The notes under the pieces were generated by a model. It was not told where the DNA came from. It saw only the letters and a list, made by a program, of their open reading frames with translations, and made no database searches. Positions 18,862 to 36,336 of a DNA stretch of 64,000 bases are shown piece after piece (within the stretch, counting starts at the first letter, position 1; each line of letters opens with the position of its first letter). The position numbers and the translations under genes were made by a program. Source of the DNA: a virus; the UHGV virus genome UHGV-0293664; one strand, 5' to 3'.

Positions 18862-19320
18862 TTAGAAGTTTGTTTTTACACGTCCCTTTTCATCAACCTC
18901 GTTGTTAGCTAAAAGCGTTACAAAGTCTGTGAAACGGACATGAAGAACTTTTTTCTTATCAAGGTATCCTAAAGCCACCCCTGAGAAATTTAGCATCAAA
19001 GGGGCTAAAGAAGCTCTGGCACTGAAATGCTGTTGTTCTACCCTTCCAACACCCTTAGTGTAGGATGGGTTAAGATTGTAAGTTCTGAATCCTAGTTTTG
19101 TTGGAGCTTTAGAATTAAAAACAACTTTATAGCGTTTCTTACTCAACTTATGCTCAAGGATAAGCATTCCCTTATCACCCTTGATAAGCTGAAAATCTGT
19201 AAAGTGCTCTTTTAAGACGAAAGGTAGTGCCAGTCCCATCGCCTGCCCCCTTTGTACCGCTGTCTCACCAAAAGCTTTTGCATCAGTAAGTTCTTTAGTC
19301 AAGTCTATGCTTTTGATCAT
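18862..19320 (-). CDS. hypothetical protein (152 aa)
   Basis: ORF. Confidence 0.4.
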   Translation of the reverse strand: MIKSIDLTKELTDAKAFGETAVQRGQAMGLALPFVLKEHFTDFQLIKGDKGMLILEHKLSKKRYKVVFNSKAPTKLGFRTYNLNPSYTKGVGRVEQQHFSARASLAPLMLNFSGVALGYLDKKKVLHVRFTDFVTLLANNEVDEKGRVKTNF

Positions 19321-29332: not shown

Positions 29333-30094
29333 TTAAAGTTCCATAAAGTTTTCTACGATCTCAATGAATGTTTTATCAGAGAAAGCATCGACCGCCCCGT
29401 TAAACCAAACTGGGATGCCGCGATCCTCATATTGGTAAATATCACTACGTGAAATGCCATTCTCCCCCAGCTGCTGTGAGTCGTATTTGTTAACGATCAG
29501 CAGTTTGGTTCCCTTATTGCAGGCAGGGAATAGCTCCCAGTTAAAATTGATAACTGTGTTGGAACACCCTACAAGGATAACCATATCATTACTCGTAAGA
29601 GAAGTCAACAGGTCATACATGTCTGTATACTTCGGAGCTACTTCTCCGAAGAACACCACATTAGGCTTAACCCAGGTATACTTTCCTGCATCTACCTCAG
29701 AGTATCCAATGTCCTTAATGACGTTACTTCCTTCATCGTCCTCATAGACTATTTCTGGCAAATACCCGTGGACATGTAAAATATCTTCATGTTTTACACC
29801 AGCACGCTCCAGCAAATCATCTACATTGGTGGTAAGGTTGATCACACGACCAGACCAGCGGGAATACCACTCAGCGATCCGAAGATGTGCAAGGTTAGGA
29901 TCAACACTGCCCAGAGCTACACGACGTGCATTGTAAAAGTCATGCACCTTATAGTAGTTCTTGGCAAAGGTGTGGATGTTGCACACCTCATCGATGCTGA
30001 AATTCTCCCACATTGCAGTGCTACCAGATCGGAAAGTGGGAATACCAGATTCAGCGCTCAAACCCGCACCGGAGATAATAATAAGTCGTCGCAT
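29333..30094 (-). CDS. Sir2-family (sirtuin-like) protein lacking the zinc ribbon
   Basis: GAGLSAESGIPTFR, TTNVDDLLERAG, LHVHGY (catalytic His), VVFFGE, ILVGCS all match sirtuin motifs; no CxxC pairs. Confidence 0.65.
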   Translation of the reverse strand: MRRLIIISGAGLSAESGIPTFRSGSTAMWENFSIDEVCNIHTFAKNYYKVHDFYNARRVALGSVDPNLAHLRIAEWYSRWSGRVINLTTNVDDLLERAGVKHEDILHVHGYLPEIVYEDDEGSNVIKDIGYSEVDAGKYTWVKPNVVFFGEVAPKYTDMYDLLTSLTSNDMVILVGCSNTVINFNWELFPACNKGTKLLIVNKYDSQQLGENGISRSDIYQYEDRGIPVWFNGAVDAFSDKTFIEIVENFMEL

Positions 30095-30102
30095 AAGTGT
30101 CC

Positions 30103-30453
30103 TCAGTAGATGTTTTGTTTAATATCTATTCCAAACTTTTTAAACGAGTCAGCTGCAAGCATGAATTTACGAGCCGCTGATGGGTTAGAAGTATGCACGA
30201 AAATCTTCACGTTGTCAACTACAGGAGGCTTACCAAATACAAATTTTTCCTCCAACATAGATAGGCAATCGTACCCTTCGAACACCTCTCCAAGGTCGTT
30301 GTCCATGTGCCACTCAGAAACGCGTCTGTAGAGCTTTCTATTATCGTTAATAAAATCCATAAACTCGGAGGAATTCTTTAGCCAAATAGCGTCTGGTAGC
30401 CCATAATTTGACGGATCTCTCAAGTCATCCAGCCACACAATCAACTTCTTCAT
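30103..30453 (-). CDS. hypothetical protein (116 aa)
   Basis: ORF between Sir2 and the ligase-like gene. Confidence 0.4.
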   Translation of the reverse strand: MKKLIVWLDDLRDPSNYGLPDAIWLKNSSEFMDFINDNRKLYRRVSEWHMDNDLGEVFEGYDCLSMLEEKFVFGKPPVVDNVKIFVHTSNPSAARKFMLAADSFKKFGIDIKQNIY

Positions 30454-31406
30454 TGCATATAGTTCTCGTTGTGGAAATAGTAATCAAGTATCTCACGGCG
30501 TTCCTGCTCTAGGAGGCAGTTCCATACATCCTCTGTGTAGTTGTTACGAATGAAGTTTACCATGCCGTAAAACTCTTCGTCAACACGTTTAAAGATATCA
30601 TCATCCCAAATCTTCCAAGCTTTACCTCTCATTACGGCCTTCCGTGCCAGATAGTATGGAGACTTAATCTTCAGCTGCAGATCATAAGGGTAGTAAGGCT
30701 TACGAATCATATACCCTTCACCTCTTGTTTCTGCAGCTAATTCTTTTGCATAACTGAACGGAATTTCACGCACAGTGTGAGGACGTTTTGCACCAAGGTA
30801 TTTGGCAATCCCGTCTAGAGCTGCTTCTGGTAGCATTATTCCAGAATCATTATATCTGCAACCTATCAAATATGCGCCATGATCTTCCTGAACAATATGC
30901 GGATCTGAAGGGTGACAAATTTCAAACATGAATGTCATGTTTTCATTACCCATAACTTTCTTGATAAGATCTAAATTACCACATTGCTCATGGATGGTTT
31001 CCTTTGCGAGGTCACAATATGGAGAATCAAGAGATCCGGTTGTTGAGAACAATAGTTCACCTTTATGAGATGATACCACACCAAGGAATCCGTTCTTTTT
31101 CTCTACCGCCGTCACAAGCTTATTGTCAGGCAGGTTGGTGGAGTTTTCTCCTAAGTTAAACACTTTTGTGAAGGGCCATGCCACAACATTTCCTTCATTA
31201 CCGACAACAATGCCTCGACACTCCAGTAAACGAGGGGACAAATGCCATAGATTGTTGTAAAATACTTTTCTGGCATATTTATAGATCTTTAACCCAAGAT
31301 CTGGGTAATATCTACTGGTTACAAGACCTTTGTCAACTAGGTCGTCTGCATTAAAATACTTCATCATACGTTCCTCATTTGTCATTTTGTTCCACAATCT
31401 TCCCAC
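30450..31406 (-). CDS. putative RNA ligase (covalent nucleotidyltransferase)
   Basis: Motif I EKKNGF (KxNG), motif IV EGYMIRK, motif V LKIKS; distinct from the DNA ligase at 26695. Confidence 0.5.
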   Translation of the reverse strand: MGRLWNKMTNEERMMKYFNADDLVDKGLVTSRYYPDLGLKIYKYARKVFYNNLWHLSPRLLECRGIVVGNEGNVVAWPFTKVFNLGENSTNLPDNKLVTAVEKKNGFLGVVSSHKGELLFSTTGSLDSPYCDLAKETIHEQCGNLDLIKKVMGNENMTFMFEICHPSDPHIVQEDHGAYLIGCRYNDSGIMLPEAALDGIAKYLGAKRPHTVREIPFSYAKELAAETRGEGYMIRKPYYPYDLQLKIKSPYYLARKAVMRGKAWKIWDDDIFKRVDEEFYGMVNFIRNNYTEDVWNCLLEQERREILDYYFHNENYMQ

Positions 31407-31428
31407 ATAAACAGCATCATGTCAACAC

Positions 31429-31457
31429 TTGAAATGTTCAAAAGAACACGATATACT
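31429..31457 (+). promoter_or_regulatory. sigma70-like promoter
   Basis: TTGAAA (31429-31434), 17-nt spacer, TATACT (31452-31457) upstream of the kinase gene. Confidence 0.4.
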
Positions 31458-31485
31458 ATCGTTGAAATTAAAACGGAGGATTACT

Positions 31486-31896
31486 ATGTCTAAAATGCTA
31501 TATATCGTGCGTGGTCTACCAGGGTCTGGCAAATCAACACTGGCAAATGCGCTATCTTTAGAAGGTCTGTATCCACATTTTGAGAACGACATGTTCTGGT
31601 ACGACGATGATGGAAATTACAACTGGGATGCAAGTAAAGTAACACTTGCAGCAAAATGGTGCAAAGATAACGTAGAAGATATGATGCGTATGGGATACGA
31701 CCGTATCGTGGTAAGTAATACGTTTACAAAAGAAAAATATGTGCAAGAATATATTGACATGGCGATCAGTCATGGGTATAGTTATACCGTGATCGTGGTT
31801 GAAAACCGCCATGGTAATAAAAGCATTCATGATGTTCCAGACAGGGTTGTGGATCGTATGGAACGCCAGCTTAAAAACTGCATTAAACTTAAATGA
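31486..31896 (+). CDS. polynucleotide 5'-kinase-like P-loop protein
   Basis: GLPGSGKSTLANAL P-loop and VVSNTFT resemble the T4 Pnk kinase domain; start placed at the SD-preceded ATG (31486), not the longer track ORF. Confidence 0.55.
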   Translation: MSKMLYIVRGLPGSGKSTLANALSLEGLYPHFENDMFWYDDDGNYNWDASKVTLAAKWCKDNVEDMMRMGYDRIVVSNTFTKEKYVQEYIDMAISHGYSYTVIVVENRHGNKSIHDVPDRVVDRMERQLKNCIKLK

Positions 31897-31903
31897 GGAA
31901 TGT

Positions 31904-32458
31904 ATGAAATACTTTGTAACAAGCGACACACACTTTCTCCACCAGCGGGTCATGGAGTTCGACTCATGTCAAAAACACAGATCTCAGTATGATCACAATC
32001 TTGACAGTATGAATGCGGGAATCATCACCAAGTGGAACTCTGTTGTGTCACCTGCAGACACTGTGTTCCACTTGGGAGATATTGCGTGCACTAATGATAA
32101 GAATATCAACAACTTACTTCCAGATATTCTAAATATGTTGAACGGACATATTATTCTTGTTCGTGGCAACCATGACACAAGGACGACTGTCAGAATTATG
32201 AAAGAGTTCGGTCATGAGGTTGTAGATTATTACGAGCTTCGCCACAACAAGAATTTGATCTGTATGAGCCATTACCAGTTTGCAAAGTGGAACAGAAAGC
32301 CTCACGGATCAGTCCAACTGTTCGGTCATGCTCACGGAACCACACAGCAGTTGTTTGGCAGGCAGTTTGATGTCGGTTGGGATGTGTGGGGGAGACTCTT
32401 ACCATTAGAAGAGGCATACCGTATTGCAATGAGTCTTGCTATTGACAGCGGGGAGTAA
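31904..32458 (+). CDS. calcineurin-like metallophosphoesterase
   Basis: SDTHF, HLGDIACTND, VRGNHD binuclear-metal motifs; start placed at ATG 31904. Confidence 0.6.
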   Translation: MKYFVTSDTHFLHQRVMEFDSCQKHRSQYDHNLDSMNAGIITKWNSVVSPADTVFHLGDIACTNDKNINNLLPDILNMLNGHIILVRGNHDTRTTVRIMKEFGHEVVDYYELRHNKNLICMSHYQFAKWNRKPHGSVQLFGHAHGTTQQLFGRQFDVGWDVWGRLLPLEEAYRIAMSLAIDSGE

Positions 32459-32505
32459 TCCCTGCTATTTTAAAGAAAATTGCCACACAAGGAGAATCAG
32501 GAGAT

Positions 32506-32856
32506 ATGAAAGATGGGGATAAGCTGCTATATCTTAAAGTCCCCCTTGAAATACTATCTATGTCAAAAGTTTTGAATGACACAACTGGGGAGGTTGTTGT
32601 TCTTGACTTATATGACAAGATCGTATACTGCTACCTGCACAACTGGTATAAGCTTGGAGGAAATTCACGCTTCACACCCAGCACAAGGAAAATTGCAGCA
32701 GATGTAGGGATAAAGAAAACAAAAGCAGCAGCGTGCGTTAAAACTTTAGAATGTGCAGGAGTGGTTGAAATATCCACACAAGGGAGAGGTAAAAGATGCA
32801 CATTTTCCAAAGTTTTGCCACCAGAAGAGGTTATTCGAATGTCAACAACTGATTAG
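32506..32856 (+). CDS. putative HTH DNA-binding protein
   Basis: STRKIAADVGIKKTKAAACVKTLECAGVV helix-turn-helix-like segment; immediately upstream of the iteron array. Confidence 0.4.
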   Translation: MKDGDKLLYLKVPLEILSMSKVLNDTTGEVVVLDLYDKIVYCYLHNWYKLGGNSRFTPSTRKIAADVGIKKTKAAACVKTLECAGVVEISTQGRGKRCTFSKVLPPEEVIRMSTTD

Positions 32857-32910
32857 ACCAGTAAAAACTTAAATATCTGTACTATAAGGATTCGTATGTT
32901 TTATGTTCGC

Positions 32911-33015
32911 CATGGAACAGACACTGTTAACTGTCCGTGATACGGACACTACTGTCCGTCACGCGGACACATCTGCCCGTAATACGGACACTAACTGTCC
33001 GTGATACGGACACAT
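32911..33015. repeat. tandem array of about 4 inverted-repeat units (GTCCGT-N4-ACGGAC), iteron-like
   Basis: Units at 32931-32950, 32951-32972, 32973-32993, 32994-33015 preceded by an ACAGACACTGT palindrome. Confidence 0.6.
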
Positions 33016-33140
33016 AAAGAATATAACTAAAATAACTAAATAATAAAAATAAAAAGATCTAGTACTTATGGTACTAAAGTACATATACTTAACTTATGTA
33101 GAATATACTAGATCCTAAGTACCATGTTTTAAAATTATTA
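33016..33140. other. AT-rich tract
   Basis: About 125 nt of very high A+T between the iterons and a GC-rich island. Confidence 0.5.
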
Positions 33141-33144
33141 CTTA

Positions 33145-33430
33145 CTATAGGTAGTGTCGGCCCTTCATTGGCACTCGCCTACGAGGGGCGAGATGCCGGG
33201 CCTCCATGGTGCACACAATAACAGAAGTGCATACATGCAGGTCTGTTAACATGTGTGGGAGCGAAGCGATAGCGCAGGCCAAAGGCCGAGCACTGATGTG
33301 GACCACCGACGAAAGCTTGCCAGCGCCGTAAGGAGTCGGTTGAGAGTCTCCCGCGCGAGCTTGGATGAAGTTTATGTGTGGAAACGGACAAGAAGGCACC
33401 TAAATCGCTCCACAGCTATATAAACTGCAC
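33145..33430. ncRNA. GC-rich non-coding island; candidate structured RNA
   Basis: Local G+C far above the flanks; the only ORFs are two overlapping minus-strand frames with non-protein-like composition; hairpins such as CTCGCC-tacgagg-GGCGAG. Confidence 0.3.
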
Positions 33431-33517
33431 CAAGTAGGGCAATCACATCAGTTTGATAGAAAAGCTCGTTACAAAGCGATACAGTGAGTTTTTCTATAAC
33501 TTGAAGAGGAGGCTGCT

Positions 33518-34096
33518 ATGAGTTCACGCAAAGATTCCCGTGAAAAGATTGCAAAACGTTATCAGAATGAAGAACAGATGGAGAAAACTTTCAAGTGGAA
33601 GCCAGGTTTCCAGCGTAATCATTCTAACGCTCGTGATCGTAAGCATCCGGATAAGTGGTTAACACCGCCAAATGATGGCATGCAGGCTGGTGATGAGAAG
33701 GAGCTGTCACCTGGAAAAGATGGCAACTACATTCGCACTAAGGAAGCAGGTCCAAAGGATGACAGTTATCTTGTAGATAAGGTTCTTGACGGTATTGATG
33801 TAGATGTTGACACTGCACGAAACCTTTTTCTTGGTTGGTATCGCACAGGGTTTTTCGACATCAAGGCTATTCGTCGTGTTTGTGATATTAAAAAGTCTGC
33901 CTATGATGATGACTCCCTACATCGCACTCTGAGACAATACTCGGAGAGATACGGTCATCCAGTTATCACTCTTGACGATATTAACGAAGTGATGTATCAT
34001 GCAGAGGTTGTTGCAGGTAGATTCGGTGATGCATACCTGGACATCCTTTCTGCAAAGGATGAGGTAATGTTGAATAAGATTTACTATGAACGCTGA
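33518..34096 (+). CDS. hypothetical protein (192 aa)
   Basis: ORF with SD GAGGAGG upstream. Confidence 0.45.
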   Translation: MSSRKDSREKIAKRYQNEEQMEKTFKWKPGFQRNHSNARDRKHPDKWLTPPNDGMQAGDEKELSPGKDGNYIRTKEAGPKDDSYLVDKVLDGIDVDVDTARNLFLGWYRTGFFDIKAIRRVCDIKKSAYDDDSLHRTLRQYSERYGHPVITLDDINEVMYHAEVVAGRFGDAYLDILSAKDEVMLNKIYYER

Positions 34097-35396: not shown

Positions 35397-35471
35397 GCCC
35401 TGTTAGCTTAGTGGATAAAGCAGCGGCCTTCTAAGCCGTTGACACTGGTTCGAGTCCAGTACGGGGTGCCA
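35397..35471 (+). tRNA. tRNA-Arg (anticodon UCU)
   Basis: Hand-folded cloverleaf: acceptor GCCCTGT/ACGGGGT (two G-U), D-stem GCTT/AAGC, anticodon loop CTTCTAA, T-arm ACTGG-TTCGAGT-CCAGT, CCA encoded. Confidence 0.65.
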
Positions 35472-35601
35472 AGTTCTTTTTAATGTAGCTTACTTTAGCA
35501 GAGTAAATCTTCGGCAAGTGGCGGTAACCACTTTACCGATACCTCATAGTTAGTGGTGAGAACACTAGCTATTTTAAAAAGAATTTAAATATTAGTATTT
35601 A

Positions 35602-35689
35602 GGTGAGTTAATTCCGTAGGGGTAGCGGGGCAGACTGTAAATCTGTTATCATTGCGATTCGGGTGGTTCGACTCCATCACTCACCACCA
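35602..35689 (+). tRNA. tRNA-Tyr (anticodon GUA), long variable arm
   Basis: Acceptor GGTGAGT/ACTCACC, anticodon arm GCAGA-CTGTAAA-TCTGT, long variable arm, T-loop TTCGACT, CCA encoded. Confidence 0.65.
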
Positions 35690-35803
35690 AATTTATATTT
35701 TTAAATGCATAAATCATACAGATAATGGCATTGATATTTATCGTCGTTTATACTAGTCACTAACTGCTCGAAAATCAGTGTCATTATCAGTATTGTTTAT
35801 AAA

Positions 35804-35894
35804 AGAGGGTAGGGAGCAATGGTGCTCAAGCGGTCTTGAAAACCGTCCCGTTGAGGATGACTCGATGATGGTTCGATTCCATTATCCTCTGCCA
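35804..35894 (+). tRNA. tRNA-Ser (anticodon UGA), class II
   Basis: Acceptor AGAGGGT/ATCCTCT, anticodon loop CTTGAAA, long variable arm, T-loop TTCGATT, CCA encoded. Confidence 0.6.
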
Positions 35895-35992
35895 TATTGT
35901 TGACCTTGTAATTAAGCGAAAGCCGGAAGCAGAACCGGATTATCAAATGTTACAGTCGTCATCGCCGACTAGCAACATGGTCAACATACTGA

Positions 35993-36089
35993 GCTAGGTA
36001 AGCCCTTTGGCAAGGGCGAGGATTTTTAATCCTGAAAATAGACGAGGTAGTCGTTGAATACATAGGTGGTTCGATTCCATCACCTAGCA
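35993..36089 (+). tRNA. atypical tRNA-like gene (97 nt; anticodon uncertain, possibly UUU)
   Basis: Perfect 7-bp acceptor GCTAGGT/ACCTAGC, D-stem GCCC/GGGC, T-arm GGTGG-TTCGATT-CCATC, but only a 4-bp anticodon stem AGGA/TCCT (loop TTTTTAA), a 30-nt extra region and no full CCA. Confidence 0.45.
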
Positions 36090-36096
36090 CCTTTTT

Positions 36097-36172
36097 GCTG
36101 ATGTAGCACAATTGGTAGTGCAATTGATTTGTAATCAATAGGTTGCAGGTTCGAGTCCTGCTATCAGCACCA
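36097..36172 (+). tRNA. tRNA-Thr (anticodon UGU)
   Basis: Acceptor GCTGATG/TATCAGC, D-stem GCAC/GTGC, anticodon arm ATTGA-TTTGTAA-TCAAT, T-arm GCAGG-TTCGAGT-CCTGC, CCA. Confidence 0.7.
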
Positions 36173-36173
36173 T

Positions 36174-36248
36174 GGCCCTGTAGCTGGAAGGTTCAAGCAA
36201 GCGACTCATAATCGCCAGACGGTGGTTCAATTCCACCCAGGGCCACCA
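36174..36248 (+). tRNA. tRNA-Met (anticodon CAU; initiator, elongator or Ile2 not distinguishable)
   Basis: Acceptor GGCCCTG/CAGGGCC, anticodon loop CTCATAA, T-arm GGTGG-TTCAATT-CCACC, CCA. Confidence 0.65.
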
Positions 36249-36259
36249 AATAATAAATA

Positions 36260-36336
36260 CTCCGCGTAGCTCAGCTTGGTAGAGCGCCTGATTTGGGATC
36301 AGGAGGTCGAGTGTTCGAATCACTCCGTGGAGACCA
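36260..36336 (+). tRNA. tRNA-Pro (anticodon UGG)
   Basis: Acceptor CTCCGCG/CGTGGAG, D-arm GCTC-AGCTTGGTA-GAGC, anticodon arm CCTGA-TTTGGGA-TCAGG, T-arm GAGTG-TTCGAAT-CACTC, CCA. Confidence 0.7.

Follow-up and report, generated by a model that had tools for sequence, protein, structure and literature searches.

Origins of the iteron type are described as consisting of repeats together with an AT-rich DNA-unwinding element (Rajewska et al. 2012, as cited in PMC7145576). The closest described system to the locus examined here is that of PLE, a phage satellite of Vibrio cholerae, whose RepA binds semi-palindromic iterons in electrophoretic mobility shift assays and whose replication needs both repA and the iterons (PMC7145576, PMC8263062). 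PLE RepA was placed among the RepA_N initiators by structure rather than by sequence, and PLE also depends on an SF1B helicase (PMC7145576); the protein's N-terminal domain (NTD) is PDB entry 4RO3 (Barth et al., NAR 2020, PMC7145576). A domain of the RepA-NTD type confers specificity for the PLE origin on the Odn nuclease of phage ICP1 (PMC8263062). Here we analyze a 64,000-nucleotide stretch of the virus genome UHGV-0293664 (hereafter, the window), in which the gene of a small winged helix-turn-helix (wHTH) protein is followed by an array of palindromic repeats and an AT-rich tract (Table 1). We propose, with somewhat better than even confidence, that rV5-like phages have their vegetative replication origin in this module, an origin of the iteron type and served by a minimal initiator that consists of a DNA-binding domain only.

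More than 100 rV5-like coliphage genomes match positions 32400–33520 at 97–98% identity, and the source of the window is an rV5-like phage of the genus Vequintavirus. The window maps to ~108.6–137.1 kb plus 0–35.5 kb of phage naam, a relative whose complete genome (137,129 bp) was pieced together from three database fetches. The succession of HTH gene, repeat array and AT-rich tract had been read from the DNA in an original prediction, and it was confirmed by codon bias, motif enrichment and scans of GC content and duplex stability. The interpretation of that layout as an origin is favored by every test that we ran, all of them computational, and a replication origin is the best explanation of the locus because the locus combines a unique cluster of phased dyads, a conserved AT-rich tract that is the most meltable DNA of the window, homology to an iteron-binding initiator domain, a position near the strand switch and within ~2 kb of the GC-skew minimum, and a layout that recurs with different sites in other phages.

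Table 1. Features of the proposed origin module and its flanks (window coordinates).
Feature	Position	Strand	Description
Sigma-70-like promoter upstream of the wHTH gene (prediction)	32442–32471	+	TTGACA, 18-nt spacer, TATTTT, with TG; consensus scan 10/12
wHTH gene	32506–32856	+	116 aa; stand-alone winged-helix protein, homologue of the iteron-binding NTD of PLE RepA; putative origin-binding protein
Spacer between gene and array	32857–32927		right end (32911–32927) hypervariable; degenerate half-unit at 32910–32925
Repeat array (proposed iterons, each for a protein dimer)	32928–33013		four 21–22-bp units; 17-bp palindrome TGTCCGT-N3-ACGGACA
Core of unit 1	32932–32948		TGTCCGTGATACGGACA
Core of unit 2	32953–32969		TGTCCGTCACGCGGACA
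Core of unit 3	32974–32990		TGCCCGTAATACGGACA
Core of unit 4	32996–33012		TGTCCGTGATACGGACA
AT-rich tract (proposed DNA-unwinding element)	33014–33145		~132 nt, 19–23% GC
GC-rich non-coding block	33146–33420	+	275 nt, 55–60% GC in a 43% GC genome; between the AT-rich tract and the next gene

The 116-aa open reading frame (ORF) is a real gene, as indicated by a good Shine-Dalgarno sequence (GGAG) upstream and by the concentration of its variation at codon position 3 (37 of 56 variable columns among 13 relatives, p 1e-6). When the PDB was searched with the single protein sequence, 4RO3 was the sole significant match (E 1.4e-6); with a profile of 21 family members the same entry was matched at E 3.8e-12, with the runner-up at E 0.006. 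Reciprocally, when 50,697 phage genomes were searched by tblastn with the 4RO3 fragment, ICP1 Odn came first, the Vequintavirus protein second (33–35% identity, E 2e-4), and gp115 of Pseudomonas phage phiPMW third. Judged from these searches, the 116-aa protein is homologous to the iteron-binding domain of RepA. PHROGs put it into family 12838 (‘replication initiation protein’) and matched further initiator families less strongly, and the matches across the protein family are to initiator families as well (8102, 428, 270, the O-like 391/678/345, and the DnaD-like 186), those to the O-like families being weak matches of relatives (E 5e-5 to 1e-4). In Pfam, HTH_36 and DUF6945 both fell just below threshold and Phage_rep_O was not matched.

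Searches of ordinary sensitivity found the protein only in Vequintavirus, in 119 phage records with identity of at least 88.7%, and a word-indexed protein search likewise returned near-identical relatives only. Remote relatives amount to a handful among 1.8 billion representative proteins: an exhaustive search of representatives gave 10 matches, some of them spurious (for example, a low-complexity protein of 729 aa and one with Ig repeats), and a scan of IMG/VR for relatives gave none.

The second line of evidence is the array itself. A repeat search located 22-nt copies starting at 32928, 32949, 32970 and 32992, at spacings of 21, 21 and 22; units 2 and 3 each deviate from the palindrome by one mismatch. 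The four inverted-repeat units of the original prediction are thus present, with corrections: the units had been written as tandem ~20-bp GTCCGT-N4-ACGGAC, and have an N3 center and a period of 21–22 bp, and the distance from the gene, given as 55 nt, is 72–76 nt past the stop codon. With up to two mismatches, GTCCGTNNNACGGAC occurs five times in the window versus 0.75 expected, a number that none of 100 shuffles reached, and four of the five occurrences are the array. In the whole naam genome, the palindrome with up to one mismatch is restricted to the array, so that the repeat cluster is unique in its replicon, as expected of an iteron origin, and the exact repeat had no match in a scan of IMG/VR. 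A lone near-copy (GTCTGTGAAACGGAC) lies at 18925–18939 within a DNA adenine methyltransferase gene, and naam has the same at 128282; it is probably a chance occurrence, because 0.75 matches are expected per window. The half-sites alternate in orientation, and therefore palindromes of the form ACGGACA-N4/5-TGTCCGT also bridge the unit junctions. Since the 21–22-bp period corresponds to two helical turns, every site faces the same side of the helix.

Palindromes phased by two helical turns are also typical of repressor operators, and an operator array is the main rival of the origin, plausible though less likely. A winged-helix dimer would then act as repressor or activator by binding the four palindromes cooperatively, controlling transcription from the early genes (ATPase, phosphoesterase and wHTH) into the downstream genes, the tRNA cluster and the late region, or controlling a promoter in the AT-rich tract, which would itself be promoter or UP-element DNA. 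The array does lie where an early cluster of three genes gives way to the remainder of the arm (PMC3606486), and GenBank submitters mostly chose the label ‘putative transcriptional regulator’ for the protein. Against this, the motif occurs nowhere else in the 137-kb naam genome, so the array is not part of a multi-site regulon, and the only significant relative of known function is an initiator domain, whereas the best matches to regulator families have E-values of 0.006–0.02 and all regulator models of Pfam and NCBIfam are far under their cut-offs.

Three independent metagenome contigs (L008, L014 and L015) end within the array, and GenBank record MG065672, labeled ‘complete genome’, begins exactly at its first unit; some GenBank records carry an unexplained ‘repeat_region’ here. 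Another rival explanation is a packaging site (pac or cosB-like), where the wHTH protein, like lambda gpNu1 or the DNA-binding domain of a small terminase, would mark the start of headful packaging. The cosB site of lambda, too, is a set of repeats that a winged-helix protein recognizes. A pac site is to be expected, as the genome is circularly permuted (PMC3606486), relatives have no annotated small terminase, and pieces of the terminase large subunit lie ~4 kb downstream of the array. We nevertheless regard this explanation as very improbable. The homology of the protein is to the DNA-binding domain of an initiator, no terminase family was matched in family and profile scans, and the corresponding modules of KpS8, GAP31 and phiPMW (described below) do not adjoin terminase genes. 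Because assemblers break at repeats, record starts at the array should not be taken for physical genome ends, an explanation that covers MG065672 and agrees with the three contigs that end there. The partition site that the original prediction had offered as another alternative found no support, because the phages are virulent and no Par genes are present in the naam genome records examined.

The third component, the AT-rich tract, adjoins the array directly, as the original prediction had it, and is slightly longer than the 125 nt given there (Table 1). It is the lowest-GC 120-nt segment of the 64 kb (19.2%; next lowest 26.7%) and, by 100-nt segments, also the weakest duplex of the window (−101.7 kcal/mol; with a mean of −133.1 and a standard deviation of 5.8, this is 5.4 standard deviations below the mean). 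The same holds in naam, where the 120 bp directly to the right of the array are the most AT-rich of the whole genome (19.2% GC; next lowest 25%). An unstable AT-rich region next to the repeats, the other hallmark of an iteron origin, is thereby present. Within the tract, two GATC sites (33056 and 33111) are part of an inverted repeat with 9 of 10 positions paired, AGATCTAGTA (33055–64) and TACTAGATCC (33106–15). A resemblance of ‘TACTATAGG’ (33144–33152) to T7-type promoters was rejected, as it is not conserved in relatives.

These properties bear on the operator explanation too, which leaves unexplained both the extreme AT-richness and instability of the tract and its conservation above that of coding sequence. 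Moreover, no sigma70-like promoter is predicted in 32857–33500, that is, in or beside the array or the tract, and the rV5 authors annotated none there, with the proviso that the scan covers promoters of the sigma70 type and phage-specific promoters are outside it.

To assess sequence constraint, 13 relatives were aligned, among them a clade with only 86–90% protein identity. The share of columns that vary is 3.5% in the array and 7.6% in the AT-rich tract, as against ~16% in the flanking coding sequences and 31% in the spacer just upstream. Being less variable than coding sequence, the tract is constrained in sequence and not in composition alone. In the divergent clade, unit 2 reads TGTCCGC-CAC-GCGGACA, where the change in the left arm makes the two arms symmetric and the dyad perfect. 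Copy number varies naturally: most genomes have four units, whereas nomo and A147 have three and YN3 has two. The wHTH module and the tract are retained in all 119 Vequintavirus records.

The variable copy number and the hypervariable left flank of the array could also reflect genetic conflict. The array might be shared with, or mimic, the origin of a satellite, or might be the target of an Odn-like homing nuclease that the stand-alone domain protects or competes for, with no firing of phage replication. There is precedent in ICP1 Odn, which uses the same DNA-binding domain to cut a satellite origin (PMC8263062), and a chimera of GIY-YIG and DUF6945 domains is among the remote homologues. We find this scenario highly unlikely: there is no nuclease domain or satellite-like element nearby, the module and the AT-rich tract are stable across the Vequintavirus records, and analogous modules at strand switches in other lineages fit a core function. 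The chimera (P0013, 228 aa) is of interest in itself, as it joins a GIY-YIG nuclease domain to a C-terminal DUF6945/RepA-NTD-like domain, repeating the logic of ICP1 Odn in reversed order; this domain layout suggests that origin-directed nucleases may be more widespread.

Comparable modules occur in other phage lineages. A distant homologue in two related genera, Mydovirus (KpS8) and Seunavirus (GAP31), has 105 aa and 33% identity over 48 residues (pairwise E 1e-5; PHROG 8102), and its gene stands exactly at a divergent intergenic region, in the same neighborhood of phosphoesterase, RNA ligase, ATPase and Sir2 genes as in the window. In KpS8, GAP31 and a further locus (L022), two semi-palindromic direct repeats of 22–23 bp (core TGCTCAA-T-TTGAGCA) adjoin the homologue, and AT-rich DNA containing two AGATCT motifs comes next; the window tract, too, has two GATC sites, in an inverted repeat. 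The only PDB match of gp115 of phiPMW, an unrelated phage of 103 kb, is 4RO3 (E 5.5e-6); its gene comes first at a divergent switch that has RNA ligase/Pnk and tRNA genes on its flanks, is preceded by three GGACA-AAA-TGTCC palindromes and an A-rich tract, and lies within 2 kb of the ‘putative origin’ assigned to phiPMW from its skew minimum (PMC5587285). Longer homologues (182–217 aa) of uncultured phages are likewise found beside a divergent switch, and one of these lies 1.4 kb upstream of the gene for a Pol A. Across these lineages the homologue gene is thus at or near a divergent strand switch. The layout is not universal in the family, since two loci with homologues of 182–195 aa (L019 and L020) have no convincing repeat array near the gene.

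The strand switch is also where the base composition of the genome turns. Cumulative GC skew in naam has its global minimum at ~2–3 kb and its maximum at ~101 kb, and the minimum coincides with the divergent gene switch ~1.5–2 kb left of the array, as it does in the window. The 2013 genome paper of rV5 tried skew analysis, defined no origin and makes no mention of the repeats; it reported the corresponding skew shift at 66.7 kb (rV5 coordinates, in which the array and tract lie at ~65.0–65.3 kb) and found that all shifts coincide with changes in transcription direction (PMC3606486). Because skew is fully confounded with transcription direction, the minimum is consistent with an origin and is not independent evidence for one.

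Several further observations weigh against an origin. Beyond 4RO3, the structural neighbors of the protein are generic winged-helix proteins, mostly regulators (MarR, ArsR, LexA or TFE-type), as would suit an operator-binding protein, and plasmid RepA and DnaD score no higher than these. The ORF stops straight after the wing and a short helix, with no extension or in-frame continuation downstream, so that the protein is a DNA-binding domain only and, unlike PLE RepA, plasmid RepA_N proteins and lambda O, has no C-terminal domain and no ATPase, helicase or primase part. The traits of RepA_N-like initiators are accordingly found in part: the N-terminal winged helix and the semi-palindromic direct repeats (7-bp arms) are present, whereas the C-terminal domain and, in the Pfam scan, RepA_N (PF06970) are absent. 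Homology alone does not fix function, because the RepA-NTD fold was also recruited to the non-initiator role of the Odn nuclease. In KpS8, GAP31, L022 and phiPMW, the repeats sit immediately upstream of the homologue’s start codon, in its own divergent promoter region, as for an autoregulated repressor. Isolates with two or three units are viable, and a range of two to four copies would be compatible with an operator. Elements of host-type origins are missing: there is no DnaA box (the best candidate has 1 mismatch and is outside the tract) and no IHF consensus, and the oriC-type 13-mer (GATCTnTTnTTTT) has one 1-mismatch match in the tract and, at 5 occurrences versus 2.9 expected, is not enriched and was dropped as evidence. 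A phage that brings its own replisome need not have such sites. Large virulent phages can moreover start replication without a dedicated initiator, as T4 does by R-loop and recombination modes, and we infer binding and origin activity in rV5-like phages from computation.

Part of this evidence does not separate the two explanations, as the roles of operator and origin are compatible and iteron initiators commonly autoregulate. On balance we retain the origin, for which we envisage the following course of events. The winged-helix protein would be produced early from the host-type promoter at 32442–32471; the RefSeq record of rV5 annotates a sigma70 promoter, ‘P76’, at the matching position, and the predicted promoter would permit early expression by host RNA polymerase. 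Dimers of the protein would bind the four phased palindromes on one face of the DNA, and the resulting nucleoprotein array would strain and melt the adjoining 132-bp AT-rich tract. The phage replisome (gp4-like primase-helicase, Pol A and PIF1/SF1B helicase), encoded elsewhere, would then load at the melted tract, and replication would proceed bidirectionally, co-oriented with the two large divergent gene arms.

Transcription may help the opening. An intrinsic terminator was found neither in a dedicated scan nor as a T-run after the hairpins of the array on either strand, and in the absence of a terminator between the wHTH gene and the array, transcription from the early promoter should read into the origin region. 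At lambda ori, transcription assists origin opening. As single-stranded DNA, the array (32920–33020) is predicted to form a nested pair of long hairpins (−25.1 kcal/mol, z −6.4), and in this model it could extrude a cruciform or act as a structured signal once unwound.

As the protein has no C-terminal recruitment domain, recruitment of the replisome must rest on something else, for which distortion of the DNA, read-through from the gene’s own promoter, or a separate partner are candidates. The need of PLE for an SF1B helicase suggests, by parallel, the PIF1-type helicase of rV5 as one route. The longer homologues P0011, P0012 and P0014 (182–217 aa; loci L019 and L020) bear a C-terminal extension, which may be the recruitment part missing from the 116-aa protein. 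The acidic C-terminal tips of P0011 and P0012 (...DAPF and ...EAPF) recall the C-terminal interaction tails of SSB-type proteins, and P0014 ends in ...PWEA.

More tentatively, and with less than even confidence, we propose that a family of minimal, stand-alone RepA-NTD-like proteins marks the origins of large virulent phages from several groups without mutual relationship (Vequintavirus, Mydovirus/Seunavirus, those like phiPMW, and uncultured relatives), each with co-evolved semi-palindromic iterons of its own at the strand switch. These proteins would initiate without a recruitment domain, for example by DNA distortion together with an SF1B/PIF1-type helicase, and the domains of PLE RepA and ICP1 Odn would be derived from this family and not from Gram-positive plasmids. 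We found no paper that defines an origin in rV5-like phages or ties this protein to PLE RepA; what was already known is the automatic label ‘replication initiation protein’ that rV5 gp075 carries in RefSeq. The unusual feature of the module is an initiator pared down to its DNA-binding domain, which raises the mechanistic question of how such a protein recruits a replisome.

Phages of the rV5 type belong to the coliphages that are isolated most often, and they find use in therapy and biocontrol. An origin candidate with its cognate binding protein makes initiation in this group directly testable and, if the proposal holds, would offer an engineering handle in the form of infection-amplified origin plasmids and of reporter or conditionally replicating phages. 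It would also tie the isolated domain of PLE RepA and ICP1 Odn to a wider phage family, and so bears on how satellites and anti-satellite nucleases gain origin specificity. If correct, it would not be a new principle; it would be a testable candidate for a widely used phage group.

Around the module, minus-strand genes (Sir2, cREC-like and RNA ligase) lie left of ~31.4 kb, and plus-strand genes follow to the right, in the order AAA_33 kinase-like ATPase, phosphoesterase, wHTH gene, hypothetical genes, tRNA cluster, terminase and structural genes. The replisome genes are at 70–80 kb in naam, and a second divergent switch lies near the replication genes; those of rV5 have been listed, and its polymerase was described as near that of ICP1 (PMC3606486). 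RNA ligase 1, an AAA_33/Pnk-like kinase, metallophosphoesterase, Sir2 and a tRNA cluster accompany the homologous wHTH module in very different phages (window 29333–32458 and 35397–36333; L017, L018, L022, L019 and L026), and this shared neighborhood looks, from its gene content, like an RNA-repair/tRNA island beside the strand switch. Two of the six Rfam tRNA matches in the window are weak (35993–36089 and 35602–35686; 35.5 and 39 bits), and one weak match is 97 nt long, with labels in relatives that vary between ‘tRNA-OTHER’ and ‘tRNA-Lys’.

The GC-rich block to the right of the AT-rich tract may be a structured RNA or a leader. Its plus strand has an RNA fold z of −3.7, no Rfam family was found in the block or the intergenic region apart from a sub-threshold chance match, and an 18-nt deletion lies inside the block in rV5 and A147. 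In RNAalifold of nine relatives, 2 of 102 pairs were compensatory, at a divergence too low for covariation. No ORF frame of the block shows codon periodicity, and the small ORFs annotated there (ORF78 of rV5 and three in MiataMamis) are therefore probably not genes. The next gene downstream (192 aa, start 33518) has no recognizable family in scans of Pfam and PHROGs, and its AF2 model has a pLDDT of 39, too low to assign it a function as partner. A conserved hairpin with a 13-bp stem (ATAGAAAAGCUCG ... UGAGUUUUUCUAU; 33455–33500) ends ~10 nt upstream of the Shine-Dalgarno sequence of this gene and may be a translational or stability element.

Set against known systems, the module resembles lambda ori in its four phased dyad iterons, each fit for a winged-helix dimer, that adjoin a melting AT-rich region, and in the transcription that reads into the origin region. 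It departs from lambda in that ori lies within the O gene, whereas the window array is 72 nt past the stop codon; in that O recruits P-DnaB through its C-terminal domain, a domain that the window protein does not have; and in that the rV5-like phage supplies its own helicase and polymerase rather than using those of the host. The RepA_N initiators of Firmicutes plasmids (RepA of pSK41 and pTZ2162; PDB 4PQL, 4PT7 and 5KBJ) likewise place a dimeric N-terminal winged helix on semi-palindromic iterons and come directly after 4RO3 in the Foldseek list (E ~3e-3, TM 0.5–0.57), but they give no significant sequence match (E 1.2), belong to a Pfam family that the window protein does not match, have origins within the rep gene, and carry a host-specific C-terminal domain. 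ICP1 Odn (gp88), the top reciprocal match just above the Vequintavirus protein, shares the RepA-NTD-type domain for iteron recognition; there it is fused to a T5orf172/GIY-YIG nuclease that destroys a foreign origin, whereas the window protein has no nuclease and its sites lie in its own genome (PMC8263062). Relative to PLE, where binding and origin function are proven and RepA has a C-terminal domain, the window module is predicted from sequence, its protein corresponds to the N-terminal domain alone, and it is part of the phage itself rather than of a satellite that borrows its helper’s replisome; the three PLE iterons of ~30 bp, with long sub-repeats around a poly-A center, also differ from four units of 21–22 bp with 7-bp arms and a 3-bp center. 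The two systems have in common a short series of semi-palindromic repeats in non-coding DNA and a phage replisome of the type built on Pol A, a gp4-like helicase and an SF1B helicase.

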